From: an uncultured delta proteobacterium
Lineage (GTDB): Bacteria > Desulfobacterota > Desulfobacteria > Desulfobacterales > SG8-13
Direction of reading: 5' to 3'
DNA length: 64,000 nt
NCBI GenBank assembly: GCA_963848135.1
Contig: CAWKCK010000018.1
Span: 324,938-388,937 of the forward strand
Shown: positions 17,340-34,316 of the stretch, one piece after another
How the letters are laid out: each line of letters begins with the position of its first letter
Position numbering within the stretch: the first letter of the stretch is position 1
Program-made: the position numbers and the translations under genes
The notes under the pieces: generated by a model
Database searches by the model: none
Seen by the model: the letters and a program-made list of their open reading frames with translations, nothing else
What the model was told of the DNA's origin: nothing

Positions 17340-17840
17340 ATGTCAAAGCGTGAAAAAATAATTCTCATTATCATGGCATTGACCATCGTTTACGGCTTTT
17401 ACGCTTTATTCCTGGAAAATCCGATGCCGGTGGGGAATAAACTGGCGTCATCCGGGAACAAACTGGATGAATTCAGCAAATTCATAACGAACGTGGCCGC
17501 TCTGACCAAAGGGGGCCTTTCGGAGGAAGACGCGTACATAATTGAACGCATTCCTGTTAAATGGACCAAAGATCCCCTGCTGAATACACGACAAAGCTTT
17601 GCCTTCAAACCCGAAGAGGAAACAAAAGAAGCCGCCGTTGAAAAACTGGGAATCACTTATACCGGATATTTAAGGATGGGAAACAAGAGCCTCGCGATCA
17701 TTGATGGCCTCGAATACGAAATCGGAGATGAACTCCCCGAAAGCGGTCATACCATCGAGAAGATTGACGCCAACAAGGTGGTCGTCGTCACACGTGGCGG
17801 TCGCAAGAAAATAACCGTCCCACTGGAAGAAACGCAATAG
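17340..17840 (+). CDS. PilP/GspC/MshK-like protein
   Basis: N-terminal TM, WTKDPL, C-terminal beta domain TGYL...AIIDGLEYEIGD; directly before the secretin. Confidence 0.65.
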   Translation: MSKREKIILIIMALTIVYGFYALFLENPMPVGNKLASSGNKLDEFSKFITNVAALTKGGLSEEDAYIIERIPVKWTKDPLLNTRQSFAFKPEEETKEAAVEKLGITYTGYLRMGNKSLAIIDGLEYEIGDELPESGHTIEKIDANKVVVVTRGGRKKITVPLEETQ

Positions 17841-17854
17841 AGCAGCAGGTAGCA

Positions 17855-19447
17855 ATGGCACCCAAATTCAAAATTGACAAACGGCTAACGGGCCTGATCG
17901 GCATTTTCGTGATGGCAGCAGTGGTAATCGGTTGTGCCAACACCCCGGAGGAGCCTGAGAAAAGCTTTTTTGACGAGTGGAAAGCCAGAGTGGCCGAATC
18001 ACAGGCCTATACACCACCGCCTAAAAAGCATCTGAAGGACCCCCTCAAGGAGGAAGGCGAACAGGGTCCTTCGGCGGCAGACACTTTGATACCGCCGGCC
18101 GAGAAACAACTGCCGACCCAAAAAATAACAATGAAAATGAGTGATATCGATGTGGCCGTATTGCTGCGGGCCCTGGCCAAGGTCGCCAATCAGAATATCG
18201 TTCTCAACGATAAAATCGCCGGCAAGGTTAACATCAATATTACCGAGGCCCCCTGGGATGAGGTATTCAAAAGCCTGTTGCGCACCCAGGGCCTGACCTA
18301 TGCCTGGACCGGTGACATCATTCGCATTTTGACGGTCCAGGATATGGAAAACGAGCTACAGCAGGAGAGCCAGCGGATCGAGCTCAGTAAAGTCGAACCA
18401 CTGATCACCCGGGTGGTAAAGATCAGCTACGCCCAGGCAGCCAAGATGCGCGAAAACATGCAAAAATTTCTTTCAACCGGTCGAGATGGAAACCCGCTGG
18501 GAACCGTGCTGGTTGACGAACACACCAACTCGCTGATCATTCAGGCGATCCCCAGAGATCTCAGCCGGATGATCGATGTTGTCGAACTACTCGACCGACC
18601 GACGTCTCAGATCCTTATCCAAGCATATATCGTAGAGACCACCAATGACACGGCCCGGGCATTGGGTGTACAGTGGGGTGGGGCGCTCCTCGCCAGCTCC
18701 AACGGGAAGAACGCCTGGTTGGGTCCCAACGGCGTCGACTATAATGAAAGAAGATCTCTTATAGACGATAACGGTGACGACATCGAGTATCTGTGGCCGG
18801 TGGGCAACGTCTCCAACTTTCCGGTCCCTCTTCCGGACGACATCGGCCTGTCATTGGGATTCATGTATCAGAATATCGGCCGGGGCCTTCTCTCGCTCCA
18901 GCTCCAGGCGCTTCAGGATGAAGGTAAACTGAATATCCTATCGAGCCCGTCCATCACCACGCTCGAAAACCAGATCGCCCTGATTGAAGCCGGTAGCCGC
19001 ATCCCCACCCAGACGGTGGAAAACGGCGAGGTCAACATCACCTATATTCAGGCGGTCCTGCGGCTGGAGGTCACACCGAATGTCATCGATTCGGAGACCC
19101 TCAAACTGAAAATCCTGACCAATAAAGATGAGCCTGATTTTACCAGAACGGTCGCCGGCAACCCCACCATTATTACCAAAAAAGCGGAAACCAATGTTAT
19201 CCTGTTTAATGGGCAAACAACGGTTATCGGCGGCTTGAGTAAGGAAACGAAAGCGGATTCCAGTGCCGGTATCCCTTTTGTGAAGGACGTACCGGGCCTG
19301 GGCTGGTTTTTCGGTAACCGATCGCGAATTAGCGCCATGGAAGATGTGTTGATATTCATCACACCTTACATACTGGAAGAAAAGCCGTTGGATCAGATTT
19401 CGAGCGCTTCCGGCAAAACGATTCAAACCGAAAATCCGCCGCAATAA
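17855..19447 (+). CDS. pilQ: Secretin (PilQ/MshL-like), predicted lipoprotein
   Basis: Lipobox VIGC, STN/N domains, QILIQAYIVE, LSSPSITTLENQ, GIPFVKDVPGLGWFF, IFITPYI. Confidence 0.9.
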   Translation: MAPKFKIDKRLTGLIGIFVMAAVVIGCANTPEEPEKSFFDEWKARVAESQAYTPPPKKHLKDPLKEEGEQGPSAADTLIPPAEKQLPTQKITMKMSDIDVAVLLRALAKVANQNIVLNDKIAGKVNINITEAPWDEVFKSLLRTQGLTYAWTGDIIRILTVQDMENELQQESQRIELSKVEPLITRVVKISYAQAAKMRENMQKFLSTGRDGNPLGTVLVDEHTNSLIIQAIPRDLSRMIDVVELLDRPTSQILIQAYIVETTNDTARALGVQWGGALLASSNGKNAWLGPNGVDYNERRSLIDDNGDDIEYLWPVGNVSNFPVPLPDDIGLSLGFMYQNIGRGLLSLQLQALQDEGKLNILSSPSITTLENQIALIEAGSRIPTQTVENGEVNITYIQAVLRLEVTPNVIDSETLKLKILTNKDEPDFTRTVAGNPTIITKKAETNVILFNGQTTVIGGLSKETKADSSAGIPFVKDVPGLGWFFGNRSRISAMEDVLIFITPYILEEKPLDQISSASGKTIQTENPPQ

Positions 19448-19613
19448 GCGCATCTGGCGACCAACCGGTATGCAGCAAAGGCTGTATTTCTCAAGGTCAT
19501 TAGGGTCCAAAAAAAAACGGTACAAAGCGCTTTTTCTTCACTCCATCTGATTGGTGAAATATCCGGGAAATACCCCAGTAAGCAGTACTTAAAGAAAAAA
19601 CTATAAATGTGAA

Positions 19614-21317
19614 ATGGATTATTTCAACGTCGTCAATCTTGATAGGGAGCCGTTCTCAAACTCCCCGGATCCGGATTTTTTCTTCGGCTCCAACCAGCAT
19701 CTTGAATGCCTTCAGAAGCTCGAGCTCGCCCTCCGGCTGCGCCGTGGCCTGAATGTCGTCATCGGTGACGTCGGGACCGGTAAGACCACTCTCTGCCGCC
19801 AACTTATCCGCCGTTTTTCCGAAACCGAAGATTTTGAAACTCATCTCATACTGGACCCGGATTTTTCCAGTTCGACGGAATTCTTGTTCACCGCCATCAA
19901 AATGCTAACCGGCAAGAAACCGCCCGGGCATTCCAAGGACTGGCAATTGAAGGAGGTTATCAAAAACTACCTCTTTCGCCGGGGTGTCGATGAAAAAAAG
20001 ACCGTCATCCTCATCATTGATGAGGGGCAGAAAATTCCTCTCTACTGCCTGGAGTTATTGCGCGAGTTTTTAAATTATGAAACCAACGAGCACAAGCTTC
20101 TGCAAATCGTTATTTTCGCTCAGAAAGAATTTGAAAACACAATTGAGAGTTATGCCAATTTTGCCGATCGGATCAATCTGTATCACTATTTAAAACCGAT
20201 GAATTTCTCCGACACCCGGGCCATGATTCGGTACCGACTCGAAAAATCGAGTAAAAACCTAAAGGCCTATACCTTTTTCAGTTTCCCAGCACTTTTGGTT
20301 ATCTATCTAACTTCCAGGGGGTATCCAAGAAAAATAATTAATGTGTGTCACCGTTGCATCTTGACGATGATCATTCAAAACCGCTCGGCGGTCAACTTAT
20401 TCCTGGCCCGAACCTGCAGCCGGAGAGTTTTTCCACACCGCAGCCATCGACACCGACGGATCGCTTTGTTGGTCGGCATCCCTCTTCTGCTTGTTATCGT
20501 CGGATTGAATGTCATTGGCATTGGGAGTTTGAATCGACCGTTCAGACGACAACCTTCAGCTACAGAATCAGCCAATGTCGCCTATGACACCCCCAGTTTC
20601 AGAAAAATAGAGACGCAATCGCCTCAAGTCATACCGGCCGTGCTACCCGAGCGAACAGCCGCCGCAACCGTCAACGATCAGATGCCGGCCCTTCGGCGGC
20701 AGAATGATCAAATGAATAGTCCCGCTCCGGTAAACATTGCCGTAACCGCCGAAACCGCAAAGATTGGGCCCTCGACCGAGAATCCGATGTCCCCTGGTGC
20801 GATGCAAACGCAACCGAATACCCTCGGCCAGGTCGTCATCATGCGCAACGAAACCCTCTACAATCTGATCGAAAATGTCTACGGCGACTATAGCTCTAAA
20901 CTATTCAGATCATTGATACTGGCCAATCCCCAGATCGAGGATCCTGATGTGGTCAATGTGGGGCAGATTATCCAGGTACCGGCAATCCCGGTTGATATCC
21001 GTCCACCGATTAATCCGGCCTGGTGGGTCAGCGTCGCTCGTGCCAAAAGTCTGGATGAAGCCTATGGTTACCTGCGTGCACTGCCTCGAGGTACCCCGAT
21101 GATACGTATCCTGTGCTACTGGACACCACAGCGAGGAATGCATTTCGATCTCATGCTGAACCAGTATTTTACCAGCGCTGAAGAGGCTCAAAACCATCTT
21201 CTGCAGTTACCGACGGCCTACTCCAAAAACAGCCGGGTCGTATCTATTTGGTCACATGACACGGTTTTTTATGCCAACCCGTTTTTTGAACGTCCCAATC
21301 GCCAGCAAAAGGGCTGA
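19614..21317 (+). CDS. ExeA/MshM-like AAA ATPase with TM and LysM-like domain
   Basis: REPFSNSPDP, GDVGTGKTT, IIDEGQ, GYPRKI; LysM-like ETLYNLIENVYG...ANPQIEDPDVVNVGQIIQVP. Confidence 0.85.
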   Translation: MDYFNVVNLDREPFSNSPDPDFFFGSNQHLECLQKLELALRLRRGLNVVIGDVGTGKTTLCRQLIRRFSETEDFETHLILDPDFSSSTEFLFTAIKMLTGKKPPGHSKDWQLKEVIKNYLFRRGVDEKKTVILIIDEGQKIPLYCLELLREFLNYETNEHKLLQIVIFAQKEFENTIESYANFADRINLYHYLKPMNFSDTRAMIRYRLEKSSKNLKAYTFFSFPALLVIYLTSRGYPRKIINVCHRCILTMIIQNRSAVNLFLARTCSRRVFPHRSHRHRRIALLVGIPLLLVIVGLNVIGIGSLNRPFRRQPSATESANVAYDTPSFRKIETQSPQVIPAVLPERTAAATVNDQMPALRRQNDQMNSPAPVNIAVTAETAKIGPSTENPMSPGAMQTQPNTLGQVVIMRNETLYNLIENVYGDYSSKLFRSLILANPQIEDPDVVNVGQIIQVPAIPVDIRPPINPAWWVSVARAKSLDEAYGYLRALPRGTPMIRILCYWTPQRGMHFDLMLNQYFTSAEEAQNHLLQLPTAYSKNSRVVSIWSHDTVFYANPFFERPNRQQKG

Positions 21318-21545
21318 TGACGCTCTGAGGCGGGTAAAAAAACTATACGCAGACTTTATTACTGCGCAGCTGGCGAATCTCCCGCGAGGCTGAGATTCCG
21401 GCACTGTTACGGCAAGACCGGGGTGCCTTATAAAATGTGGAATTGGTTCGTGACACGCAGCCACACCCGGAGATAACAACTTTCATTTACAGGATGCCGC
21501 TTTAATAATTAAGACTGCACCTGTAACCCACACGAGAAAAGAAAA

Positions 21546-23249
21546 TTGAAAATCAAAAAACGATTGGGAGAGATTCTGATAGAAGGCGGGCTGTTAACCC
21601 GCATGCAGTTGGAAGAGGCGCTGCCGTATCAAAAAAAGTCCGGCCTCAAGCTGGGGCAGTTCCTGGTGCGCGAAGGGATCGTTAGTGAAGCCCAGATCGT
21701 CGATATGGTATCCAACCAGCTGAATTTGAGAAAATATACGTCTGGGAAATATCAGATTGATCCGGAGCTATCCAATGTCATTCCGGCCGAAATGGCCTTC
21801 CGGTACCAGTCTGTCCCGCTCAAAAAAAACGGACTGCTTCTGACAGTTGCCATGACGGACCCGATGGACATCAATGCCGTGGATGCCATCGAAGTGTATA
21901 CCAACAACGAAGTTGAAACGATTATATGTACCGAACAGGATTTGAATCAACTGCTGAGCAGCCTCTACGGCACCTATTCCGGCATCGATGGCGTACTGGA
22001 AGACATGGAGGACATGCAGTACGACAAAGAATCCGAGAAAGCACCGATCACCGAGGATGTGGAGGTCAGTTCGTTGCAGGGAATGGCCGAAGAGGCGCCG
22101 GTTGTTCGTCTGGTTAACTCCATTTTATCGCAGGGCGTGCGTGAAGGCGCCAGCGATATACATATCAGTCCTGAAAAAGATTTTGTTCAGGTCCGCTTTC
22201 GGGTCGACGGAAAATTACATGAAGTGCCGGCACCGCCCAAATCCATGTTCCTGCCGATCGTCTCACGACTAAAAATCCTGGCCAACATGGATATATCCAT
22301 ATCGCGTATTCCCCAGGACGGTCGTTTCACGGTTAAAATGAAGAACAAGGAAATTAACATCCGGGCGTCTACGATTCCTTCCATATACGGCGAAAACATG
22401 GTCCTGCGTTTGCTCGACACCAGCAGCGGCGTATATTCCCTGGAGCGTCTCGGTATGTCACAAACGGACCGCGACAAGATTGTCTCGGTCATCAATCGTC
22501 CCTACGGTATGATTTTAAGTACCGGGCCGACGGGCAGCGGCAAGAGTACAAGCCTGTATTCAATCCTAAAGACAATCAATAAACCGGACACCAATATCAT
22601 TACCGTCGAAGACCCGGTGGAATACCGAATCGAGAAGATTTGCCAGGTCCAGCTCAACCGCAAAGCGGGAATGACATTTGCAGACGGCCTGCGGTCGATC
22701 CTGCGTCAGGACCCGGACGTCATCATGGTGGGCGAGATCCGCGACACGGAAACCGCCACCATTGCGGTACAGGCGGCCTTGACCGGTCACAGGGTACTGA
22801 GCACGTTGCATACCAATGATGCCGCCGGCGCGATTACCCGCTTTATCGACATGGGCATCGAGCCGTTTCTAGTTGCCTCGACCATGATCGTATCCTTTGC
22901 CCAGCGCCTGGTCCGCACCATCTGTCCCCAATGCAAGGCCCGCTATGAACCGCCTGAGGAGGCCTTGCATTTCTGGGGCCTGACGGGTAAAGACGGGACC
23001 AAGCTGGTGCATGGAACCGGCTGTTTCAATTGCATGCACACCGGCTACAAGGGCCGTTCCGGCATTTTCGAAGTCTTGCTGATCGATGATTTGGTGCAAA
23101 ATATGATTCTCAAAAAACGATCTTCACATGAAATCAGCAGAGCCGCAAAAGAAGCGGGTAAACTATCGACGCTAAAAGAGGACGCTGCGCAGAAAATATT
23201 GCAGGGAATCACGACAATTGAGGAGGCGGCATCGGCGGTACTAGCATAG
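21546..23249 (+). CDS. pilB: Pilus extension ATPase (PilB/MshE/GspE) with N-terminal MshEN motif
   Basis: RLGEILIEGGLL...Q, ASDIH, GPTGSGKS, EDPVE, LRQDPDVIMVGEIRD, CPQC/CFNC. Confidence 0.95.
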   Translation: MKIKKRLGEILIEGGLLTRMQLEEALPYQKKSGLKLGQFLVREGIVSEAQIVDMVSNQLNLRKYTSGKYQIDPELSNVIPAEMAFRYQSVPLKKNGLLLTVAMTDPMDINAVDAIEVYTNNEVETIICTEQDLNQLLSSLYGTYSGIDGVLEDMEDMQYDKESEKAPITEDVEVSSLQGMAEEAPVVRLVNSILSQGVREGASDIHISPEKDFVQVRFRVDGKLHEVPAPPKSMFLPIVSRLKILANMDISISRIPQDGRFTVKMKNKEINIRASTIPSIYGENMVLRLLDTSSGVYSLERLGMSQTDRDKIVSVINRPYGMILSTGPTGSGKSTSLYSILKTINKPDTNIITVEDPVEYRIEKICQVQLNRKAGMTFADGLRSILRQDPDVIMVGEIRDTETATIAVQAALTGHRVLSTLHTNDAAGAITRFIDMGIEPFLVASTMIVSFAQRLVRTICPQCKARYEPPEEALHFWGLTGKDGTKLVHGTGCFNCMHTGYKGRSGIFEVLLIDDLVQNMILKKRSSHEISRAAKEAGKLSTLKEDAAQKILQGITTIEEAASAVLA

Positions 23250-23426
23250 TTTCCGTCCATAAATGGCCCTTTTCAGCAATTTCGGCGTCAATTGGCGGAA
23301 TCGCTTATGCGGCCTACAGGAGTACGCCTCCGCGCAATTCCTTGATTTTCTTGAACTTGCAGAAAATTGCTCATTTCTGAATCGGAAACGAATCAGTGCC
23401 CTTAATGAAACCGTGGATGGGTACTA
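23249..23426. repeat. Long palindromic intergenic element, family B
   Basis: Inverted arms GTTTCCGTCCATAAATG (23249) and CATTTCTGAATCGGAAAC (to 23389), apex CTAC-AGGA-GTAC, tail ending GGATGGGTACTAG; 21-bp direct repeat at 23237-23257 and 23420-23440. Confidence 0.7.
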
Positions 23427-23630
23427 GCATAGTGTCCGTCAACGAAAGGATGATGGATCGATTGAGTGCCCAATTCATAAATTAGAATTTTCACTAAAGC
23501 GGGGGTAGGCCCCCCGGTTCAGCGTTTAACGCCGTATTGTCAAGCACAATCGTTTTTCAATAGCCTGTTAAGCCCGATAACGATTAGCGACCGTGAATTC
23601 ACCTAAGTCGCACCAACTGTTGAGGCGAGA

Positions 23631-24848
23631 ATGCCGAAATTTGCCTATAAGGTCATCACTGAAACCGGAGATGTAAGCGCCGGCACGATCGAAGCCGAAT
23701 CGGTGGATGCCGCCAACAGCAAGCTTACAGCCCAAGGATATATCCCCACCCAAGTCCGGGAGGTAACGATAAACGCCGGCCTCGACCTAAAGGCCCTCCA
23801 AGACAGGCTAACGCCAATCAGGGTTCCCGAGATCATCCTGTTTACGAAACAGTTTCGCACGATGATACGCGCCGGTGTTTCGATGCTGAATCTGCTTTCG
23901 ATTCTCGAGGACCAGACGGAAAACGTAAAGCTGAAAAAAGTCATTTCCGAGATGCATCAAGCCATCAATCGGGGTGCGAGCTTGACGGAAGCTTTCCAGA
24001 ATCATCCACGGGTTTTCTCGCCGCTCTACTGCAGCATGGTGCAAGCCGGAGAGGCCAGTGGAGCGTTGCCTGAAATCCTGCAGCGCTTGACCTACATTCT
24101 GGAGCACGAGCAAAAGGTAAAAAACGACATTAAATCCGCACTCCAATATCCGGCGATCGTTGTGACGTTTTTGATTATCGCGTTCATCGTGTTGTTGACA
24201 TTTGTCATTCCCAAGTTCGCCAATATTTTCCAGAGTGCCGGCCTGAAACTGCCACTGCCGACAGTCATCTGTATGAAACTGTATGAATTCATGTCAAGTT
24301 ACTGGCTGCTGATCGTCGGTGCCATTATCGTCGGAATCATTGTCCTGCTGTCATATTTCAAGACGCCACAGGGCCGCTTCGTCCGTGATACCGCCATGCT
24401 CAAGTTGCCAATCATCGGTATTTTGCTCCAGAAGGCCGCAATTTCAAGGTTTGCAAGTATATTCTCGATCCTGCATGCCAGCGGGGTGGACATTCTCGAA
24501 TCGATGAACATTCTTTCGGGCACTATTGGTAATGAAGCCATTGCCAGTGACCTCGATGCGACAAAGGGATTACTCGAAGAAGGCCGGGGAATTGCCAGCC
24601 CCCTATCGGGTTCAAAATATTTTACGCCGATGCTGATCAACATGGTTGCCATTGGCGAAGAAACCGGTAACCTCCAGGAAATGCTCCAGGAAGTCGCCGA
24701 TCACTACGACTCTGAAGTCGAATACGCTATGGGAAAGCTCTCGGAGGCCATCGGGCCCTTGTTGACTATCGGTCTGGCAGCCGTGGTGGGCTTCTTTGCA
24801 TTGGCGATATTTTTGCCGATGTGGGATCTCACGACCATGGTCAAATGA
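23631..24848 (+). CDS. pilC: Inner-membrane platform protein (PilC/MshG/GspF)
   Basis: MPKFAYK start, AGEASGAL, ALQYP, GEETGNL, IFLPMWDL. Confidence 0.95.
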   Translation: MPKFAYKVITETGDVSAGTIEAESVDAANSKLTAQGYIPTQVREVTINAGLDLKALQDRLTPIRVPEIILFTKQFRTMIRAGVSMLNLLSILEDQTENVKLKKVISEMHQAINRGASLTEAFQNHPRVFSPLYCSMVQAGEASGALPEILQRLTYILEHEQKVKNDIKSALQYPAIVVTFLIIAFIVLLTFVIPKFANIFQSAGLKLPLPTVICMKLYEFMSSYWLLIVGAIIVGIIVLLSYFKTPQGRFVRDTAMLKLPIIGILLQKAAISRFASIFSILHASGVDILESMNILSGTIGNEAIASDLDATKGLLEEGRGIASPLSGSKYFTPMLINMVAIGEETGNLQEMLQEVADHYDSEVEYAMGKLSEAIGPLLTIGLAAVVGFFALAIFLPMWDLTTMVK

Positions 24849-24874
24849 GCGCGTCCATAACTCGAATATCATAG

Positions 24875-26239
24875 ATGATCCAAAATTATTTCAAAGATAT
24901 CAAAAACCTTCCGCGTTTTCATATCAGCCTCTACCTTATCATTCCCTTCATTATCATGGGATTCACCGTTTTGGCGGCTCTTGTAACGCTGAACCTGACC
25001 CGTTACCACCTCGTATCTCAATTTGGTTTTGGCAGCCCTTTATTCTGGGCCGTTGCGCTCATTGCCATGTCGGCTTTCATTGCCGGTGTTCTCCTCGTAA
25101 GACTCATTTTGAAACCGGTCGAACGCTTTGTCGAAAAGGCCAGACAACTTACCCCTCGATCGGATGAAGACCAATCGGTACGACCGCAGACTGACGGTGA
25201 CCAGATTCAACAGTTCACTTACGTCTTCGATCAGGTGACCAGTGTTCTGAGTCGAATGGAGTCGCGTCACTTTTTTCCAAAACTCATCGGCGAAAGTCTG
25301 CCGATGAGAGGACTGATGAGTCTGATAATGAAGGTGTCTCAAACCGACTCAACCGTGCTCATTCTCGGGGAGAGTGGCACGGGAAAGGAACTTGTGGCGA
25401 CAAGTATCTATGAAAACGGACTGCGCAAAACCAAACCGTTTATCAAGCTTAACTGCGCCGCCATTCCCGAAGAACTATTGGAGAGTGAGCTTTTCGGCCA
25501 TGAAAAAGGTGCTTTTACAGGTGCCACAGCGTTAAAGCCGGGAAAGTTCGACATGGCCGACAACGGTACCATCTTTCTCGATGAAATCGGTGACATGCCG
25601 TTCAGCCTGCAGTCCAAGATTTTACGAATTATTCAGGAAAGAGAATTCTACCGGGTCGGGGGCAGCAAAACCATAAAGGTCGATGTCCGATTCATTGCCT
25701 CGACAAACAAGAACCTGGCACAAATGGTTCGCGACGATAGCTTTCGGGAAGATCTATTTTACCGCTTGAACGTATTCACACTTCACCTACCGCCATTAAG
25801 GGAGCGTAAAGAAGATATACCGGCGCTGGTGGACCACTTCCTGGAAAAAAACGCTAAGAAAGTTGACATATCGTCGATGGCCCTCCAAATGTTGATGACC
25901 TATTCCTGGCCTGGAAATGTGCGCGAACTCCAGAACACTATCGAACGTGCCGCGGTCATCTGTGAGGACAGCTATATTGAACCGGCTCATTTGCCGCCCG
26001 ATATCACCCAGATCTTCGATCGCGGCGATACTGAGGCTATACCGCCCCTGCCAGCGAACTATACTTTGGATGAACGTCTGTCCGAAGTTGAAAGAAATAT
26101 GATCCTCGAAGCGCTGCGTAAAACCGGTGGCGTTCAGATACGCGCCTCCGAACTGCTGGGGATCAATCAGCGCAGTTTGTGGCATCGAATTAAAAAACAT
26201 AATATTGACGTCAGACGCATCAAAAATGGAAATAATTAG
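24875..26239 (+). CDS. Membrane-anchored sigma-54-dependent activator (2 TM + AAA+ + HTH)
   Basis: Two N-terminal TM segments, HAMP-like linker, GESGTGKE, GAFTGA, WPGNVRELQN, HTH; no REC domain. Confidence 0.9.
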   Translation: MIQNYFKDIKNLPRFHISLYLIIPFIIMGFTVLAALVTLNLTRYHLVSQFGFGSPLFWAVALIAMSAFIAGVLLVRLILKPVERFVEKARQLTPRSDEDQSVRPQTDGDQIQQFTYVFDQVTSVLSRMESRHFFPKLIGESLPMRGLMSLIMKVSQTDSTVLILGESGTGKELVATSIYENGLRKTKPFIKLNCAAIPEELLESELFGHEKGAFTGATALKPGKFDMADNGTIFLDEIGDMPFSLQSKILRIIQEREFYRVGGSKTIKVDVRFIASTNKNLAQMVRDDSFREDLFYRLNVFTLHLPPLRERKEDIPALVDHFLEKNAKKVDISSMALQMLMTYSWPGNVRELQNTIERAAVICEDSYIEPAHLPPDITQIFDRGDTEAIPPLPANYTLDERLSEVERNMILEALRKTGGVQIRASELLGINQRSLWHRIKKHNIDVRRIKNGNN

Positions 26240-26247
26240 AAGATTAC

Positions 26248-26262
26248 CTACATAATATGTAG
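26248..26262. promoter_or_regulatory. Candidate bEBP upstream activator sequence
   Basis: Perfect palindrome CTACATA-A-TATGTAG about 120 bp upstream of the sigma-54 promoter. Confidence 0.5.
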
Positions 26263-26381
26263 CATATCCCAACGGTAGTGGCCGTGTTCCTGCCGGGTTT
26301 CGCGGTCCAGAAAAAAATCAACCTATTTGAATTATTAGTCTTTTTTTGATATCGGTTTGCCGGGAAACTTTTCTTTGACAC

Positions 26382-26398
26382 TTGGCATGGTACCTGCA
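26382..26398 (+). promoter_or_regulatory. Sigma-54 (-24/-12) promoter of the pilin genes
   Basis: TTGGCATGGTACCTGCA: GG-N10-GC spacing, about 190 bp upstream of pilin ATG 26585. Confidence 0.8.
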
Positions 26399-26584
26399 TA
26401 ATTTTGAGTGTGTTGAATTTTGTCTGATGTGATCACAGAGCGCCAGGGCGACGATGATTGTTCATAGTCTGACTTTACTACCATTGGCGTCACAGAACGA
26501 TTTTGAATGTTTTCTTTGCTAACAACGCTTTTTTGACAGGCGAACACTATTAACCGCCTGACAAAAAAGGAAAGGAGCTAAATT

Positions 26585-26983
26585 ATGGAACCTATAACCA
26601 AACATTTGAGGAATGAAGAGGGTTTCACGCTGGTCGAGATCATCGCAGTCTTGATTATATTGGGTATCCTGGCCGCTGTGGCCGTGCCGCGTTACATCGA
26701 CCTTGAAACCAACGCGAAAAAGAGGGCTATCGATGCGGCAGTTTCAGAATTGAACGGACGCGAAAACCTCACCTGGGCCAATGTGAAAATCAGTCCTGCA
26801 GCGCCAGCCGATCCGGAGACGGCTGTCTGGCCACTGGACAGTAATCTCGGTGCTGATTACGAATGGAATGGTGGGCCGGCGGCCACAGGAGGCCAACTTC
26901 GATTCAAGCAAGGGGATTGGGTGACGCTAAATCGGACCGTTTCTCTATCCGATCGACCGGGCAACTGGGTTCTCAGCAATTAG
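26585..26983 (+). CDS. Type IV pilin, probable major pilin (MshA-like)
   Basis: Strong RBS AAGGAG; class III leader EEG|FTLVE; VPRYIDL. Confidence 0.92.
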   Translation: MEPITKHLRNEEGFTLVEIIAVLIILGILAAVAVPRYIDLETNAKKRAIDAAVSELNGRENLTWANVKISPAAPADPETAVWPLDSNLGADYEWNGGPAATGGQLRFKQGDWVTLNRTVSLSDRPGNWVLSN

Positions 26984-27110
26984 GCAAAGCTGGGTGTATA
27001 AGCGCTCAGCGGAAGATTCGGTTATGAAAGGTCTGTGGTCTGCAGATGGGTTTTATGGCCGGCTGATGCAATTTCAGATGTGTGTGGTTGTTCATCTCTC
27101 ATAGGACTGG

Positions 27111-27554
27111 ATGTCAAACGTGGGCGAATCGGAGAAAACAAAAACCACATCACTTGTCAAGTGGCTCCCTCACACCATAAGCAGCCGTGAAGGGTTTACA
27201 CTGATTGAGATTATTACCGTTCTGATCATTCTGAGCGTGCTGGCCGCTATTGCCGTTCCCAAATATATTGATCTCGATGCCCATGCCAAGGAACATGGCA
27301 TTGACGCTGGCATCGCCGAAATGAACGGCCGGGAGAGTTTGGTGTGGGCCAACATCAAGCTGGCCTCACCTTCAGGCTGGCAGAGCGATGCTCAGGTTTT
27401 TAGCTATATTGACGATAATTTAGGCCTCGATTACACGTGGTCTGCCGGACCGGATGCGGCCGGTGGTACCTTGACGTTCCAAACGGACGTTACGGCCGAA
27501 CTTGAACGCAGCCCGTCTGAAAGCGTAAAACCAGCACACTGGTCCAGGAAATAA
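27111..27554 (+). CDS. Type IV pilin paralog 2
   Basis: REG|FTLIE, VPKYIDL, EMNGRESLVWAN. Confidence 0.9.
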   Translation: MSNVGESEKTKTTSLVKWLPHTISSREGFTLIEIITVLIILSVLAAIAVPKYIDLDAHAKEHGIDAGIAEMNGRESLVWANIKLASPSGWQSDAQVFSYIDDNLGLDYTWSAGPDAAGGTLTFQTDVTAELERSPSESVKPAHWSRK

Positions 27555-27601
27555 TATGAAACCTGAGGCCTGTTTTTTACACAGACGGATAGGAATCTTG
27601 G

Positions 27602-28009
27602 ATGGAGATGAACCAACGGCTGAAGTTTAGAATATCAAAAGAAAGCGGTTTCACGCTGATTGAACTGATGGCCATTTTGGTTATCATTGGCGTTATCGCC
27701 TCTGTTGCCGTCAAGAAATACACCAACATCAGCACCCACGCTGAAAAACGGGCCATACTTGCCGGAATTGCCGAACTGAATGCCAGAGAGACCCTTTTTT
27801 GGGCCAATCATCTGATTGCCAATGGCGGATATAGCGGCGATGATCCCATCTGGTTACTGATGGCGCTAAACACTGACCTCGGTTCGGCCTATCAGTGGAC
27901 GATCGGACCGACCAAACTTGGCGGTGAATTATCCTTTGGTAGCCAATCGGAAACCCTCAATCGAACCACGTCAACACAGTTATCAGCTGCAAAATGGTCC
28001 AGTACTTAA
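27602..28009 (+). CDS. Type IV pilin paralog 3
   Basis: ESG|FTLIE, ELNARETLFWAN. Confidence 0.9.
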   Translation: MEMNQRLKFRISKESGFTLIELMAILVIIGVIASVAVKKYTNISTHAEKRAILAGIAELNARETLFWANHLIANGGYSGDDPIWLLMALNTDLGSAYQWTIGPTKLGGELSFGSQSETLNRTTSTQLSAAKWSST

Positions 28010-28303: not shown

Positions 28304-28867
28304 TTGCGGTTGTATATGAATTACGATGAACACGATATCCGTGTCATCCTGCAGGTCCTCCGGGGGGACCGAAACGCCTATGCCGATATCGTCGAACGAT
28401 ATAAAAGCCCCGTTTACAACCTGGCCATCCGACTCACCGGTAATCTGGCCGATGCTGATGATCTGGCCCAGGATATCTTCATCCGGGTATATGAACGTCT
28501 GGACCGTTTCGATGTCACCAAACGTTTTTTCCCGTGGATGTACACCGTTGCACTGAATGTTATTCGCAACTACAATAGAAAGAATAAATCGATATTTCTG
28601 AGATTCCATAACAACAACTCCGCGGATAAGTGGCTGAAGCATTCGGAAACACCTGAGAAAAACGTTGCTGAAAATCAGCAGCAAAATAAACTTGCCCGCT
28701 GTATCCTGAAACTGCCGATAATACAGAAAGAAGCCGTGGTTTTGCGCTACTATCAAGGTCTGACTTTTGAAGAAATCGCGGAAGTGAGTTCCTGTTCGCT
28801 GAGTGCTGCAAAAATGCGCGTCTACCGCGGTTTGGAGCAACTCAACCGGCTCATGCAAAGTCCCTGA
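28304..28867 (+). CDS. ECF sigma-70 factor (SigW/RpoE-like)
   Basis: DADDLAQDIFIR (region 2), FPWMYTVALN, LRYYQGLTFEEIAE...AKMRVYRG (region 4). Start may be ATG 28316. Confidence 0.92.
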   Translation: MRLYMNYDEHDIRVILQVLRGDRNAYADIVERYKSPVYNLAIRLTGNLADADDLAQDIFIRVYERLDRFDVTKRFFPWMYTVALNVIRNYNRKNKSIFLRFHNNNSADKWLKHSETPEKNVAENQQQNKLARCILKLPIIQKEAVVLRYYQGLTFEEIAEVSSCSLSAAKMRVYRGLEQLNRLMQSP

Positions 28868-28869
28868 TA

Positions 28870-29027
28870 GTAAGCATTCACAGGGCACCGCATCTGCTTT
28901 GTTGTCGGACACTTGAAGTACAAAAGTACGTCTGCGCGCCCGACGCCTTGCATCTGCGTCACCCTGTAAATGCTTACAAATAGGTGGCTTGATGCATATT
29001 GGATGTTGCAACCCTGTGAACGGCTAC
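28870..29027 (+). repeat. Family A repeat copy 2
   Basis: Near-identical to 4058-4216; starts 3 nt after the ECF stop codon. Confidence 0.92.
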
Positions 29028-29057
29028 CCCTGATAAATCACTGTCTGAAAGCAAAAT

Positions 29058-29723
29058 ATGCCGCATCAAGATAAAAACCTCGTCCCGCACGGACATACAA
29101 CTGAATTAACGGATGACATTGAAAGTACAGTGGCATTTGAATTCATCCTAAACTTATTAAAATCCTCAGCTACCGTTACGCCGCCGCCGGACTTCACCCC
29201 CAAAGTCATACAATGCTTGTCACAACTGAACATCGATCCCCGCCGGTCATCCGACCGCAATTCCCTCAACGACCGGCTGCAGGATGCAATCGGAAACCTG
29301 ACTTCGCCCGCTACGGCAATGGAAATGGCGACGTGTTTTTTTCTCAGCGGCTTTTTCTACCTGGTACTGGGCATCAGCCTGCATCTTGGGCTGAAATCAC
29401 TGGGCGTCAATCCCCAAGCGACGGGCTGGATCTATTACCAACCACACCTCGCCGTGCTGATCGCCATGGGCTTCTCAACCGTGGGGTTTTTATTTTTGAA
29501 AAACAGCCACCGGGCATTCCGAATCGCCAATCTGACAACCATTGTCTATATTCTGTTTTCGATTTTCAACAGCGTGCAAGTGCAGTTAATTTCATCGAAT
29601 CCCTTCAGCATAAGCGCTGTGCTCTGTTTCTCAGCGGGAACCATATTCGTGGGCGTTTTTCTGGCCGTGACCGTAAATAATTTTAAACGCTGGGCATCTC
29701 CGTCGCGCATTGGCTCACCCTGA
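29058..29723 (+). CDS. Probable anti-sigma factor, 4-TM membrane protein
   Basis: PPPDFTPKVI motif resembling RsiW-like anti-sigmas, four hydrophobic segments, follows the ECF gene. Confidence 0.6.
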   Translation: MPHQDKNLVPHGHTTELTDDIESTVAFEFILNLLKSSATVTPPPDFTPKVIQCLSQLNIDPRRSSDRNSLNDRLQDAIGNLTSPATAMEMATCFFLSGFFYLVLGISLHLGLKSLGVNPQATGWIYYQPHLAVLIAMGFSTVGFLFLKNSHRAFRIANLTTIVYILFSIFNSVQVQLISSNPFSISAVLCFSAGTIFVGVFLAVTVNNFKRWASPSRIGSP

Positions 29724-29840
29724 GTCTTTACAGTGCCCATCTTTGAAAGGCAGATAGCATGTCTCATGATTGTTATGGCAAATTTAAACCCTGCAGAAAA
29801 ATTTCTATGTAATATGCGGGAAAACAAGAAAGAAGCATCT

Positions 29841-30329
29841 ATGGTCAAATCAGAGTCAGGATTTACCATCTTTGAAATCTTGGTCGTGCTGATCATTTTG
29901 AGCATAATCATGGTATTTGCCATCGGGCGGGGAAGGGTTACCGGTGCGGATGTGAAAGTTCAAACCGAGGTGTTGAAGAGCCAGCTGAGGCACGCCCAGG
30001 CCAGGGCCATGAACGACAATAATTCCTGGGGCATTCAAACCGACAGTTCCGGTGGCGCCTACTGGTTATTTCGATATGACGGCAGCTTCAACCAGTTCCG
30101 TCTTCCGGGCGAGGATGCACTAACAATTAATCTCGCTGTAAAAGGCCTGAGTATGACGCCGGGGATCTATTCCTTTGATCCTGACGGCACCCCCCACTTT
30201 GATTCTGACCCGACAGCGAGTCAACCGTCGACGGCCGTCCTGCCGTCACCGGGTCAGCAAATCACAATCTCCGATGGCACCGATAGCTACATCATCCTGC
30301 TTACCAGAAACACGGGATTCATTCAATGA
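29841..30329 (+). CDS. Minor pilin (MshC/FimT/GspH-like)
   Basis: ESG|FTIFE, LRHAQARAM, FDPDGTP, TGFI. Start set at ATG 29841 (ORF track 29733). Confidence 0.85.
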   Translation: MVKSESGFTIFEILVVLIILSIIMVFAIGRGRVTGADVKVQTEVLKSQLRHAQARAMNDNNSWGIQTDSSGGAYWLFRYDGSFNQFRLPGEDALTINLAVKGLSMTPGIYSFDPDGTPHFDSDPTASQPSTAVLPSPGQQITISDGTDSYIILLTRNTGFIQ

Positions 30330-30772
30330 AACGGTTGTTATCAAAAATAGGTACTCAAAACGGATTCACGCTGCTTGAGGTCATCATCGCCATGATTGTT
30401 GCCGCCATATTGGGGGCCATTCTGCTCGAATTCATGGGCCATACGGTACAGAAAAGCTATCAACCCATCCAGATGGCGCGTGAGAATATGGAACTCAACG
30501 AAATTGTTGAGAAGATGAATGCCGACTACAAAAAGCGCCTGCTTCTCTCTCCCGATCCGCTGGTTGGCTTCAAAAGCGATGTTGAGGCGGGCAATACGGC
30601 CTCTCCTCTGCCCTACTATGGAGATTACTCGGTGACGACGTCCTGGATTGCCTTCGACGGAGCTGGCCAGGAAATCGCGGACACCAACCCGATGGACCCT
30701 TTACACCAAAGAATTCTGAAAGTTACCGTGGTTAGGGGCCAGCATGAAATCACGACTCTTTACACGAGGTAG
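30326..30772 (+). CDS. Minor pilin (MshD/PilV-like)
   Basis: QNG|FTLLE; ATGA overlap with the upstream gene; C-terminal LKVTV...TLYTR. Confidence 0.85.
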   Translation: MKRLLSKIGTQNGFTLLEVIIAMIVAAILGAILLEFMGHTVQKSYQPIQMARENMELNEIVEKMNADYKKRLLLSPDPLVGFKSDVEAGNTASPLPYYGDYSVTTSWIAFDGAGQEIADTNPMDPLHQRILKVTVVRGQHEITTLYTR

Positions 30773-30829: not shown

Positions 30830-33238
30830 ATGAAAACACCGAGTGCCGGATTCACACTGGTTGAAGTCATCGCGTCACTTTTGATCGTTGGAATACTTGG
30901 CGCCATCGCCGGGATGGGAATGGTCACCGGCATGCAGGGGTATATGCAGACCAAGGAAAATGCCCACCTGGTTCAGAAAGCCCAGGTCTCGATGGACCGC
31001 ATTAGTCGTGAACTGATAAAACTGACTGATGTTGTTGCCCGTGACGATGGTTCCGACCCCTGGGTCATATTCGATAACATTACTGAACGACAGGCCTTGG
31101 CTAAGGTGGGTGACACTCTGCAGCTTTTCAGGCTTTCTGCCGGGGCAACAGACCTTTCGGGGGTGACGGGAGACATCCTTGTCGACCAAGTGGACAGGTT
31201 CAGCGTAACTTACAAAAAAGGCCCCTTGGACTGGATTATCTCAGACGGTGTCGACCTGCTCTCAGCCATTAGAGTGGAGTTAGACCTGCAACGATTAGAA
31301 TCTAGCGGTAATATAATTACATTTGCCAACACCATAAATCCACGCAATACCAGAAATTCGAGCGGGGCTTCCACTACGGTACAGGAACCTTACACGGCGC
31401 CCCAATATCAGTGTTTCATTTCAACTGCCGCTGCCACCGGCACCTCGCCGCCGATGAATGGGTATCTTGTACCCATGCTTTTGATTGCTGCGACGCTTGG
31501 ACTCATGAGTATCGTAACGTATTGTCTGCGCCGCAGTAGAAGCCGGCCTTGGCACACGCAATCGCGAAGGACACAGTGCTGGAACCCTGCCGGCGGTATC
31601 AAGTCAGCGACAGAAGAAAGAGGCAATGTGTTGGTCGGGCTTGTGGTCACCATGCTGCTATTTGCGGCTCTGGGGGCCGGTATGGTGACAATGACCGGCA
31701 CCTCCTCAACCAGCCAGGTGGTCGGCAACACCTCTGTCAGGGCCTACTATGTGGCCGAATCCGGTTTCCGCTATGCCGCCAGCCGCTACCTCAACACCAC
31801 CGATGCCAACAACCGCTACGAATCCAAGGATGAAAAAAACCAGACCCTGGAAGCCTTGGACAATCGTACGCATACACTGTCCAACGACGATGGCAGTTTT
31901 CGCCTGAGAATATTCCCTTATTATCTTAGCGTACTCGCCGATGCCAACGCCAATGCCACCTCTCTGTATACAAAGTTTCCGGGCAGCCAGCCGAATGGAT
32001 TCACTTTGCCGCCAGCCGGCCTCATCGCGCGGATAAAAATCGGCAATATGGTTCACACCTATGGCAGCTACAATAGCGGGACCGGCCAATTCAGCACGAT
32101 CTCACCCCCTTTACTGGATAACGTTTATCAGAACGCGACTGTCAAACTGGTCGGCATCCCTGCCGGAAGCACCGTACTCTCCCAAGGCGGCGACCTGTCG
32201 CTCGCCAGTGCGAGCTTTTTCCCGCAGCTTCAAGGGCGTATAAAGATCAATGGCGTCGCCTACAGTTATATCACCAGTGACGTCAGCACCAACACCCTGC
32301 AAGACATTTATCAGGTCGACGACCCGAGCGCGGCTTTCAACATTGCGGTGGATACCACCACAGATATCGTCCTCGAACCCTTCGTCCAGGTGCGGTCTAT
32401 CGGAACCGTCGGCACCGGCGATCTGACCGCCACACGCGAAGTCGTCTTTAACACCCCATTGCCGGAAAAACCGGGAACGGTGGAAGCCGAAGAATTCAGG
32501 GATGAGTTTAGCGACCTGAGCCACTGGAATGCCGCGACACTTGGCTCTTTCGCCATCGCAAATGTCGGGGGCGAAAATGTCCTGGCCGTCACCAATGTCG
32601 AACCCGGGTTCGGCATCCTCAAAGCCAGCCTCATCGGTTTCGATTGGACCACGACACCCATTAACTTTGCCTCGACCCATCGCACGGCCGGGTATTATCT
32701 GAGCTACGACAGCCAGGTGAAAATCGGCTTTGATACCGCCCCCTTTCCGGAAACCGGCTGGGGACCGGAGGGATCCCCCATTCCGAAACATTTCGCTGCC
32801 GGTCTTTCTTTCCGGCTGGACGAGAACCAGAATTTCTACGGCCTCTCCTTCATGCGCGGCTGCACGGGTTCAGAAGGGATAGACTGCAGTCCACCGGATA
32901 GGATAGACGACCCCATCGTCCCGGTAGACGATGTCAAGGTTGTCGTTTTGTGGCAGCAAACCGGCGACGGCTCGGACCGGCAGTGGTTGGCCTACAGCGA
33001 GTTGGGGCTGCTTTTTTCAGATGGCGCCGAACTGGAGCCACCGCCGGGCAAATGGACGGCCGACGACGATCATCCTGGCGATCCGCTCTGGACGAGGGCC
33101 GACAACTATGCATTCAGCGGAACCTACTCTTGGTCAACGAGCCCGGCCGGTACTTACACCGACCCGCCCTCCGGCGAAACCTGGAACGATTCCCTGACCT
33201 CGGAGGTGATCGATCTTTCCAATGCCACAAGCAGCTGA
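30830..33238 (+). CDS. Minor pilin (MshO/PilW-like) fused via CFI motif + TM to a PilX/MshP-like pilin-adhesin; N-terminal part of a frameshifted gene
   Basis: SAG|FTLVE leader; CFISTAA at aa 195; TM; second leader ERG|NVLVGLVVTMLLF...AYYVAESG at aa 265; beta-rich C-terminus broken mid-domain. Confidence 0.85.
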   Translation: MKTPSAGFTLVEVIASLLIVGILGAIAGMGMVTGMQGYMQTKENAHLVQKAQVSMDRISRELIKLTDVVARDDGSDPWVIFDNITERQALAKVGDTLQLFRLSAGATDLSGVTGDILVDQVDRFSVTYKKGPLDWIISDGVDLLSAIRVELDLQRLESSGNIITFANTINPRNTRNSSGASTTVQEPYTAPQYQCFISTAAATGTSPPMNGYLVPMLLIAATLGLMSIVTYCLRRSRSRPWHTQSRRTQCWNPAGGIKSATEERGNVLVGLVVTMLLFAALGAGMVTMTGTSSTSQVVGNTSVRAYYVAESGFRYAASRYLNTTDANNRYESKDEKNQTLEALDNRTHTLSNDDGSFRLRIFPYYLSVLADANANATSLYTKFPGSQPNGFTLPPAGLIARIKIGNMVHTYGSYNSGTGQFSTISPPLLDNVYQNATVKLVGIPAGSTVLSQGGDLSLASASFFPQLQGRIKINGVAYSYITSDVSTNTLQDIYQVDDPSAAFNIAVDTTTDIVLEPFVQVRSIGTVGTGDLTATREVVFNTPLPEKPGTVEAEEFRDEFSDLSHWNAATLGSFAIANVGGENVLAVTNVEPGFGILKASLIGFDWTTTPINFASTHRTAGYYLSYDSQVKIGFDTAPFPETGWGPEGSPIPKHFAAGLSFRLDENQNFYGLSFMRGCTGSEGIDCSPPDRIDDPIVPVDDVKVVVLWQQTGDGSDRQWLAYSELGLLFSDGAELEPPPGKWTADDDHPGDPLWTRADNYAFSGTYSWSTSPAGTYTDPPSGETWNDSLTSEVIDLSNATSS

Positions 33239-34316
33239 GCTGACTTTCAGAACCCGATACCGCATCGATTCCTGCGAGGACAATGGATTGGTTGAAATTT
33301 CTGGTGATGGAGGTTCAAATTGGATTCCATTGAACGATAATATATCGCAACACTGTGGCGGATCAGAACCTGACGATTCGAGTGAAGCCCGCTACACCAG
33401 CAACAGTGATGAAATAACGGGAAATATTAACGGCTGGCTGAAAAAGTCCCTCGACATCAGCAGTTACGCCGGCAACCCCAACGTCCGAATCCGGTTCAGA
33501 TTCGAAAGAAACCCCTCCAATACCCGCGACGGCTGGTGGCTCGACGATATCCGGGTCATCCAGGATTTTGATATCAACGACGCCACCCTGCTGGTGCGGA
33601 TCTACGAAGCGACCCTGGTCGAGTTCGACAGCGGCGGCCGAACGGTCGGCCCGGACACGATCGATATCGATGCCGGGGATATCGTTTACCAGTCCAACGG
33701 CGCCAGGGGCCGGGTCATCGTACCGCCGATCCTCTCCTCGGGCAGCTGGTCCGGTGGTACCGCCGATGGAATGCTGTGGCTCAACAACACCTCTGATGAC
33801 GATTTTTCAACGAGCCTGCCGCTGAGCGTCGTGAAGGTGAGCGGATCGAATATTGCCAATGTCACAAATGTCAATATGCGCAAAAATTTCATTCAGGCCT
33901 TCTACGGGGCTCAGAATGGCGTCAGTCCACCGACCAGCCCCGATCTTGCCGGCTTATACCAATATGACCAAGAACGCCTGAGTAACCTGTTCGGTACGGC
34001 CCACTGGCCCCCGAATCCGATCTATATTTCCCCTCCCGACCCCCCATATAGCGGTACAAACGACTATTTTACCCTGGTGCAATGGAACGATGTCGTGCAA
34101 GGCGCCACCCGCATGGCGGATGAAAACGACAAATATACGATCATCGCTTCCAGTCAGGCGGATCTCTTCTCACCCGTGGACACCTACTTTCCCTATACCC
34201 GTCCCGAACTCGGCCTGCACGCCATTGGTCACGGCGCTGCCAACGTTTATTACAAGGACTTTGCCATCCGGGCCGGTATGGCCGTGCAAACCGGGCTGAT
34301 CCCGATACAACAATAA
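33222..34316 (+). CDS. C-terminal part of the pilus adhesin (+1 frame continuation of the 30830 ORF)
   Basis: LTSEVIDLSNAT (upstream frame) continues into AELTFRTRY...VEISGDGGSNW...VRIRFRF...DGWWLDDIRV, one jelly-roll domain. Confidence 0.8.
   Translation: MPQAAELTFRTRYRIDSCEDNGLVEISGDGGSNWIPLNDNISQHCGGSEPDDSSEARYTSNSDEITGNINGWLKKSLDISSYAGNPNVRIRFRFERNPSNTRDGWWLDDIRVIQDFDINDATLLVRIYEATLVEFDSGGRTVGPDTIDIDAGDIVYQSNGARGRVIVPPILSSGSWSGGTADGMLWLNNTSDDDFSTSLPLSVVKVSGSNIANVTNVNMRKNFIQAFYGAQNGVSPPTSPDLAGLYQYDQERLSNLFGTAHWPPNPIYISPPDPPYSGTNDYFTLVQWNDVVQGATRMADENDKYTIIASSQADLFSPVDTYFPYTRPELGLHAIGHGAANVYYKDFAIRAGMAVQTGLIPIQQ

Follow-up and report, generated by a model that had tools for sequence, protein, structure and literature searches.

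To our knowledge, the minor pilins responsible for priming type IV pili and the pseudopili of type II secretion have always been described as separate genes, each with a single N-terminal class III signal. The tip initiation complexes named in the accessible part of PMC13533445 are GspI-J-K, PilV-W-X (with PilY1) and MshD-O-P (with MshQ), and the same source describes CpaL of the Caulobacter Tad pilus as a minor-pilin-like domain and an adhesin in one protein. The class III leader, according to the available sections of PMC10191384, "invariably ends with Gly or Ala", and the tip complex is capped by a subunit without Glu5. A second group of systems to be considered here are the protein-sorting tags. 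In the sections at hand of PMC11980579, the Cys-bearing, tripartite MYXO-CTERM tag is cut in a Cys-dependent manner by the CPBP protease MrtX, and the internal MYXO-CTERM of MXAN_5598, a protein thought to be a fusion of overlapping genes, is proposed to be processed as well. The preprint of Haft (10.1101/2023.06.07.544157) extends the myxosortase scheme to three more tags; CFI is absent from such of its text as is available to us. We here analyze a gene in which two minor-pilin-like modules are joined in one frame by a linker that resembles a CFI-type tail. It lies in a stretch of 64,000 nucleotides from an uncultured delta proteobacterium (contig CAWKCK010000018.1), called the window below. 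The literature search returned no paper on a precursor in which minor pilins are fused, none on a class III site inside a chain, and likewise none on the CFI-box-CTERM domain.

The host is a sediment bacterium. The open reading frame (ORF) in question runs on the forward strand, as do all features given below, from 30830 to 33238, and encodes 802 aa as assembled, with both pilin modules in one frame. It starts with leader 1, MKTPSAG, which ends at Gly7 (30830–30850). Module 1 follows at 30851–31405 (residues 8–192), with Glu5, an alpha1N helix and a head, the pilin head being of ca 185 residues. The linker begins with YQCFISTAA (residues 193–201, at 31406–31432, with Cys195 at nt 31412), and its order is CFI, a 13-residue spacer, a 23-residue uncharged helix and then RRSRSR. 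This hydrophobic helix 2, GYLVPMLLIAATLGLMSIVTYCL, covers residues 211–233 (31460–31528) and is predicted to run from the periplasm to the cytoplasm. The Arg-rich loop RRSRSR...EERG (31529–31624, residues 234–265, with Gly265 at 31622) would double as leader 2, and the junction reads ERG265, then NVLVGL. The N-terminus of module 2 (31625–31765) extends from a second alpha1N-like helix without Glu5, NVLVGLVVTMLLFAALGAGMVTM (N266–M288, 31625–31693), through AYYVAESG (residues 305–312, 31742–31765). The body of module 2 occupies 31766–33238, as far as a stop that we consider artefactual (see below), and continues at 33222–34316 with the remaining part of a MAM-type domain and a conserved C-terminal region ending in TGLIPIQQ. 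The preliminary description of the locus had given leader 1, the CFI motif, the helix, the loop, leader 2 and AYYVAESG with the coordinates and residues found here. It had let the ORF end near 31800, which is too early, as the frame reaches 33238 and resumes in another frame to 34316. Both remaining forward frames are closed by stops over 31200–31800, so the frame across the junction is a single genuine one.

The fusion is real, and it is conserved. Of 41 closely related genomes, the own one included, 13 have the junction in one unbroken frame, and G024 and G034 add two cases with other linkers. An exhaustive search with residues 1–357 at E≤1e-3 matched 1238 representative proteins; among the 150 that scored highest, a length of 950–1380 aa prevails. 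In the species-representative genomes, 166 loci encode relatives, and the locus statistics given here refer to the best 80 of these 166. They divide into fused loci (33 of the long-linker and 20 of the short-linker form), 22 two-gene loci and 5 that are cut or frameshifted. With this recurrence, in 53 of 80 species-level loci, the architecture is beyond chance. In an even, class-wide sample of 201 genomes that are at least 90% complete, 20 have the fused and 24 the two-gene form. Cultured carriers include Desulfosarcina alkanivorans PL12, with a complete genome, and several Nitratidesulfovibrio species, among them N. termitidis and N. liaohensis. The preliminary description had called for a homolog search, and the conservation of the fusion is thereby confirmed. 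It had also stated that homologs in the form of two separate genes would speak against its proposal; such relatives do exist, but they are the minority state, and the two states have interconverted at least four times. Their existence does not make the fused copy studied here an accident.

The mechanism that we favor is the following. The gene product would span the inner membrane with three helices and be the precursor from which two tip (initiation-complex) subunits of the MSHA-type type IV pilus encoded by the window arise. Module 1 would be the minor pilin at the MshO/PilW/GspJ position, with a normal class III leader and Glu5, and module 2 an MshP/PilX/GspK-type cap without Glu5, fused to an adhesin-like body of ca 850 residues with a MAM-type domain. 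The joint between them would be a shortened CFI-type sorting tail, whose cytoplasmic end runs on in frame into the leader of the following gene, itself cytoplasmic. Prepilin peptidase would cut after Gly7 and then again after Gly265. The second of these cuts would free module 2, with the N-terminus that it has in the two-gene relatives, and module 1 would retain a CFI tail of the ordinary, C-terminal kind. At that stage module 1 would still be held by the second helix, and its entry into the fibre would need the tail to be removed. The tail would thus be removed, or otherwise handled, before module 1 exits the membrane, and the likeliest agent would be a Cys-dependent sorting protease of the MYXO-CTERM kind. 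What was observed are the architecture, its conservation, the signals of topology and the homology of the individual parts; both cleavages, and the enzyme of the second, are inferred. On balance, we would expect the precursor to be cut by prepilin peptidase at Gly265. Given this cut, the additional removal of the CFI tail has about an even chance. The complete scheme, in which prepilin peptidase cleaves within the chain, as an endoprotease, and so separates the two tip pilins of a polyprotein, and in which a Cys-dependent sorting protease, CPBP/myxosortase-like or new, trims or lipidates the C-terminus of the MshO-like pilin, is put forward tentatively.

We now turn to the second cleavage site. 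Gly is found at this position in all of 125 fused proteins, with Arg or Lys at −1 in 87, Leu at +3 in 119 and Glu at +5 in none. At the level of loci, the residue before the second helix is Gly in 79 of 80 and Ala in one (four misregistered rows were read by eye), and the last residues of the loop follow [QEN]-[RK]-G. The putative internal site thus has the class III pattern, that is, a hydrophilic, positively charged stretch, Gly/Ala and 23 hydrophobic residues. Compared with 10 relatives, the window is 74% identical in the first alpha1N helix (alpha1N-1), 55% in the pilin head and 60% in the CFI motif. The identity is 14.5% in the spacer and helix 2 and 17% in the loop, and it is 82.5% in the second alpha1N helix. 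These values are signs of a disposable linker, the helix 2 and the loop of which appear to evolve freely. The loop between helix 2 and the Gly has 0.20–0.24 Lys and Arg per residue, versus 0.08–0.11 before helix 2, and its net charge is at least +2 in 130 of 141 proteins. The positive-inside charge statistics over these 141 proteins are consistent with the proposal that the second transmembrane helix returns the chain to the cytoplasm, and that part of the preliminary description is supported.

The identity of the linker is indicated by other genes of the same genome. Four of its ORFs end with GGGGCF[IV], a spacer of 10–20 aa, a helix of 17–22 aa, a basic cluster and a stop, and each of these four tails directly follows a choice-of-anchor U domain. 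The layout of the window linker is that of these four tails and of the pilin tail in the two-gene relative G155. Because it equals the layout of four true C-terminal tails of the genome, we read the linker as a shortened, internal CFI-type tail. Like the CFI-box-CTERM domain (NF041770), it retains the Cys-Phe-Ile head, one helix and a basic cluster; unlike that domain, it is internal instead of C-terminal. While ca 900 residues follow the CFI piece in the window, canonical CFI-box-CTERM domains of the order lie at the very C-terminus: in all 6 ORFs that were checked, the stop is 103–120 residues past the Cys. The model NF041770 (cut-off 40 bits) matches internally in 16 of 41 fused relatives. 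Relatives with the long linker match it over all its 69 positions, with 71–83 bits. In G024, the internal CFI-box-CTERM, with 71 bits, is the sole copy of the domain in a 100%-complete genome. Descent of the CFI piece from the CFI-box-CTERM sorting-type domain is supported by these sequence comparisons. As a side observation, the four tailed ORFs of this genome (L023–L026; C3:260353-262800, C4:115816-117795, C17:469415-472012 and C18:712685-714751) are large and of secreted type, and their short CFI-type tail is missed by NF041770 and may deserve a model of its own.

In 143 two-module proteins, out of 215 proteins gathered, CF[IVL] is present in 138, and 4 more have Cys with two hydrophobic residues. 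The Cys and Phe are conserved to at least 90% in alignment A3, which was not filtered for the motif and in which the Gly is invariant. For the alignments A1 and A2, in contrast, CF[IVL] had been a selection criterion, which makes the invariance of Cys and Phe in them circular, and one locus, L012, was left out of one set of relatives by the motif filter. The length of the linker is bimodal, either ca 90–110 or ca 155 residues, and a middle region of ca 55 residues of CFI-box-CTERM is missing from the window linker. The window belongs to a 13-row short-linker clade in a quick tree. The nearest neighbors of this clade include long-linker forms, which suggests that the short linker arose by deletion. 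The window linker also has the layout of a Cys-bearing tripartite tag, i.e. a motif with Cys, a helix and an Arg cluster. As far as the available sources describe them, the MYXO-CTERM-type tags are alike in that a short motif containing an invariant Cys is followed by a helix and by an Arg cluster in the cytoplasm, and in their connection with a machine for type II secretion or type IV filaments. They differ in the motif, and in that the downstream partner is here a pilin with a class III leader and not a Sec-signal barrel. Selenocysteine at the position of the CFI Cys was considered and rejected, as the TGA codons inside some of the matches are ordinary stops of two-gene forms.

The two-gene relatives give a view of the state without fusion. 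They mostly end module 1 straight after the PRN motif and have no CFI (17 of 22 by script, plus one by eye). In L058, module 1 ends in a full CFI-box-CTERM, and the next gene begins with MRARSFPLPSPGKG, followed by S after the putative cleavage site. In G155, module 1 ends with ...CFITSLGQQKMD, the helix, RRSRNG and TAG, and module 2 begins with MDSKG and then SILIG; its ATG overlaps the stop of module 1, and its Shine-Dalgarno sequence AAGGAGG lies within Arg codons. A shift by one base in an overlap of the G155 type would yield the fused form. Since the end of the tail and the following leader are both cytoplasmic, such a fusion preserves the topology. On a tree of module 2 with 72 rows, which leaves out the five cut or frameshifted loci and is, like the other tree, a quick search, the label fused or unfused needs 10 changes by parsimony, and at least 4 of them are forced by well-supported branches. 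The simplest explanation for this frequent switching would be that fused and unfused genes yield identical mature products, and this in turn would mean that the leader is cut off at the Gly either way. Two side observations concern these intergenic regions. In L121 (G155:C93, ca nt 959–1000), the Arg codons AGG AGG of the tail are at the same time the Shine-Dalgarno sequence of the next pilin gene, with the overlap ATGGATAG. In L018 (G035:C28), a spacer of ca 110 nt between the pilin genes consists of a short tandem repeat, with in-frame ...RKTADG-stop units.

The identity of the two modules can be discussed on the basis of profiles and position. Site 1 is above the cut-offs of PF07963 (23.0 bits versus 21.2) and TIGR02532 (19.2 versus 16.3), and G7, F8, T9 and E12 are invariant across 41 aligned family members; it is thus, as judged from these matches, a class III type IV prepilin signal. 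Module 1 sits after H-like and I-like genes, that is, at the J position of the operon. The NCBI names of relatives are PulJ/GspJ family or type II secretion system protein, and one fragment is named CFI-box-CTERM domain-containing. Matches to ComGF are weak and occur in 11 of the 41 members. No match to the GspJ, PilW or PilY1 models was obtained among the 41, and the globular parts have no significant match, GspK included. GspK (NF037980) matches in one of the 41 members with E 0.0016, and GspJ (TIGR01711) is absent from the family matches. Profile comparison gives a probability of 2.6% against Escherichia coli GspK and of 77.9% against GspJ, both of these spanning the N-terminal 30 columns only. 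The ESM Atlas model of the relative P0009 (pLDDT 0.59, low confidence) resembles PpdB-type pilins, but this likeness is below the naming bar and is kept as a lead only. The Atlas had nothing usable for module 2. A PilW profile built from the genes 5' of PilX_N genes was also dropped, because the set mixed PilV-like and PilW-like proteins.

For module 2, the PilX_N model (PF14341) gives 8.6 bits and E 2.5, against a cut-off of 25.5, colinear over profile positions 1–51, and none of the 41 members matches it at E≤0.01. In a hhalign comparison of the 41 family members with 9 canonical PilX_N proteins of the same order, 64 columns are aligned with a probability of 93.6% (E 2.1e-7), the internal Gly pairing with the leader Gly of PilX and AYYVAESG with FYxAEAG. 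The N-terminus of module 2 is thus PilX-like, as the preliminary description had proposed, and the profile evidence points to homology with bona fide PilX_N members. It is colinear with PilX_N from the Gly of the leader through the hydrophobic helix to AE[AS]G, and differs from that family in staying below the cut-off of the Pfam model in every member. The first 547 aa of module 2 have no family match, and when the family profile was compared with the sequences of solved structures, the MAM domain and pilin N-termini were the only matches. The C-terminus of the family has the consensus GFLxPIQQ, with the penultimate Gln conserved to at least 90%. This conserved end would fit the donated strand of PilY1, MshQ and CpaL.

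By position, and in the scheme of PMC13533445, module 1 can be regarded as a probable MshO/PilW/GspJ-type pilin, and module 2 as a probable MshP/PilX/GspK-type cap with a large MshQ/PilY1-like body. As far as the tip initiation complexes are described in the sources available, they have several features in common with the locus: the order H-like, I-like, J-position and K-like followed by a large adhesin-like part, the cap subunit without Glu5, and a conserved extreme C-terminus as for a donated beta-strand. They differ in that the J-position and K-type parts are here one polypeptide, connected via a membrane hairpin. Module 2 would resemble CpaL, or MshP and MshQ in one chain. It couples a PilK/PilX-type N-terminus to a large body with a conserved C-terminal end of its own, a likeness drawn from the description of CpaL; in that description, the CpaL chain has no preceding pilin or sorting tail.

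It is important to weigh the double cleavage against other explanations of the same architecture. The first is that the tether is not cleaved at all, such that one chain with three membrane helices carries the two modules as a covalent pair. This could either act as a priming platform at the inner membrane or carry helix 2 and the loop into the tip. The Arg or Lys at −1 (87 of 125) could in that case replace a free amino terminus, and it is evident from PilK-Cbeta fusions, as reported in the accessible part of PMC13533445, that a degree of covalent linkage is compatible with tip complexes. However, the Gly/Ala is kept in 80 of 80 loci although the surrounding loop varies freely, a tip complex leashed to the membrane could not depart as the fibre grows, and the switching between fused and two-gene forms would mean repeated switching between tethered and free products. 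We consider the uncleaved tether unlikely, while it is the alternative that fares best.

A less probable alternative, which we regard as doubtful, is that a sorting-type protease makes the sole cut, in or close to the CFI tail, without any part for prepilin peptidase at this joint. Module 1 would thereby be freed, and helix 2 and the loop would stay on module 2 as a hairpin that anchors its N-terminus. The layout of the linker does match a tripartite, Cys-bearing tail, and internal sorting tags can work, as indicated by the available sections of PMC11980579. On the other hand, this leaves the invariant Gly and the PilX-like end of the leader unexplained, and a module 2 with two anchoring helices could not join the fibre.

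Another option considered was that module 2 is made separately, from an internal GTG start at 31628 behind AAAGAGG, the fusion frame being incidental. The window does have AGAGG 5 nt 5' of this GTG, and in a few relatives a Met occurs in frame, 13 residues ahead of the Gly. Across the relatives, however, no conserved internal start was found. The codon at +2 is GTG, GTT, GTC or GCA, and it is one of the latter three in 8 of the 17 relatives' loci listed. The AGA-GGC that looks like a Shine-Dalgarno sequence is unique to the window, the Arg codon being CGC or CGT in relatives, and most of their loops have no Met. Furthermore, the 893-aa "unfused" proteins that begin at that Met result from a contig cut inside module 1 (L034). 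A separate start for the second pilin, raised in the preliminary description as a possible objection, is thus very improbable.

Finally, a lost stop or an assembly error that joined the two genes here only, for which one could cite the at least one indel error of the assembly in this same gene and the broken frames in G001, G006 and G008, has a negligible probability, because the same junction recurs in dozens of assemblies that are independent of each other and include cultured strains with complete genomes, and the other frames are closed.

The artefact reading is thus refuted for the fusion, and only the break at 33229–33231 is artefactual. At this position, one surplus base interrupts the frame. 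The base is omitted at 33229 in run X3 and at 33231 in run X2, that is, in 2 of 2 public contigs over the site, from two different studies, and a deletion at either position restores the frame. Because both covering public contigs are without one base, we attribute the stop at 33238, as the most likely cause, to a misassembly where the sequence is polymorphic. The public contigs of runs X1–X4 leave 31444–31567 uncovered and are hence silent on the linker, while they are informative on the frameshift. Among the public runs that contain the gene, no RNA run is listed. A protein with 93% identity, P0001, crosses the break in frame (...SNATTAELTF...). The MAM-type domain is split over two ORFs, and PF20773 (InhA-like_MAM) matches in 33222–34316 with E 7e-10 from profile position 64. 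Intact relatives are single frames of 1100–1225 aa. We read the real gene as 30830–34316, which would encode ca 1166 aa. We also note that the sequence at 33229–33231 resembles a blend of two alleles, ..ACA GCA GCT.. and ..ACA ACA GCT.., that are seen separately in public contigs, and that the broken frames of G001, G006 and G008 come from similar assemblies.

A number of observations weigh against the proposed double cleavage and should be considered together. The N_methyl and IV_pilin_GFxxxE models match only residues 5–27 in the 802-aa ORF and not site 2, although the miss of N_methyl at site 2 is expected for cap pilins without Glu5. The residue after the Gly of site 2 is Asn, Ser or Ala and not the usual Phe or Met, and in the literature we found no precedent for the cutting, by prepilin peptidase, of a leader that a preceding helix holds in the membrane. 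As to the tail, NF041770 has no match on residues 185–270 of the window protein even at E≤10, and no match anywhere in this genome. The silence on the window can be attributed to the deletion of the ca 55-residue middle region. Of the models that the preliminary description had proposed to scan with, N_methyl thus answers at site 1 and is silent at site 2, PilX_N remains below its cut-off, and CFI-box-CTERM has no match; the likeness to a CFI tail that it had put forward stands through the relatives and the layout and fails with this model on the linker itself. One of the 143 two-module proteins, P0090, is fused and has a Cys-less linker, the Cys being present in the other 142. Four two-gene forms (L070, L083, G062 and G183) retain a CFI stub with no helix, so that the motif may serve another purpose than tail removal. 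The search for a dedicated enzyme points in the same direction. Neither neighborhood nor class-wide co-occurrence revealed a CFI-specific processing enzyme. The 8-kb flanks of five CFI-bearing genes share regulators only, and the neighborhood approach was abandoned. The genome has three Rce1-like genes, one of which, the best CPBP candidate, is MrtS/MrtJ-like, below the cut-off. Its orthologue is present in 18 of 20 fused, 17 of 24 two-gene and 68 of 157 other genomes, and hence does not discriminate between them. An apparent co-occurrence of a candidate enzyme with the fusion among close relatives (14 of 17 fused versus 0 of 4 two-gene genomes) vanished in the class sample.

If the gene product is a widespread natural precursor with an internal class III site, the cutting of an N-terminally tethered leader by prepilin peptidase becomes directly testable, and so does the relevance for priming of a 1:1 delivery of J-type and K-type subunits. 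The function of the unstudied CFI-type tail becomes testable too, since entry of its substrate into the fibre is easy to score. We know of no link between sorting tags and type IV filament biogenesis other than for type II secretion cargo; if the proposal is true, pilus-tip assembly would be coupled to a C-terminal protein-sorting pathway. The cultured carriers, Desulfosarcina alkanivorans PL12 and the Nitratidesulfovibrio species, make such experiments feasible.

The surroundings of the gene are those of a pilus locus. According to its Pfam matches, the window carries a complete MSHA-type type IV filament cluster. At 14739–28009 there are a PilM-like and a PilO-like protein, a secretin, an AAA_22 ATPase, a T2SSE ATPase bearing MshEN, a T2SSF platform protein, a sigma-54 activator and three pilins. 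After the three pilins come an ECF sigma factor, a membrane protein of 221 aa, a GspH-like pilin, a PilV-like pilin and the fused gene, a gene order that we presume to be msh-like. The first gene of the tip-pilin operon, at 29733–30329, is predicted to encode a GspH/FimU-type minor pilin (TIGR01708 gspH, E 3.4e-9; PF12019 GspH, E 0.0014; both under the cut-offs). The next one, at 30326–30772, would encode a PilV/GspI/MshD-type minor pilin (N_methyl 28 bits, with weak PilV, GspI and ComGE matches). A GspH-like homologue lies upstream in 67 of 80 related loci and a PilV-like one in 70 of 80; the genes 3' of the pilin gene are not conserved, being shared in just 8–11 of 80. A gene for a prepilin peptidase (A24) is present in the genome at C2:127260-127586.

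Some further observations were made in passing. The ECF sigma factor and the 221-aa protein, which has four helices and no family match, lie at 28304–29723, just 5' of the minor-pilin genes. The pair is upstream in 24–25 of 53 fused loci versus 0 of 22 two-gene loci, and downstream in two of the two-gene loci; this bias may be phylogenetic, or the pair may act as a regulator or partner specific to the fused form. Another match of the A24 prepilin-peptidase kind, at C5:132644-132946 (L022), has an in-frame TAG inside a frame of 150 aa and is possibly a broken paralogue. Two canonical PilX_N genes are found on contig C9 (C9:35211-35360 and C9:43594-43743; L133), which means that the genome also has ordinary, unfused minor-pilin sets.

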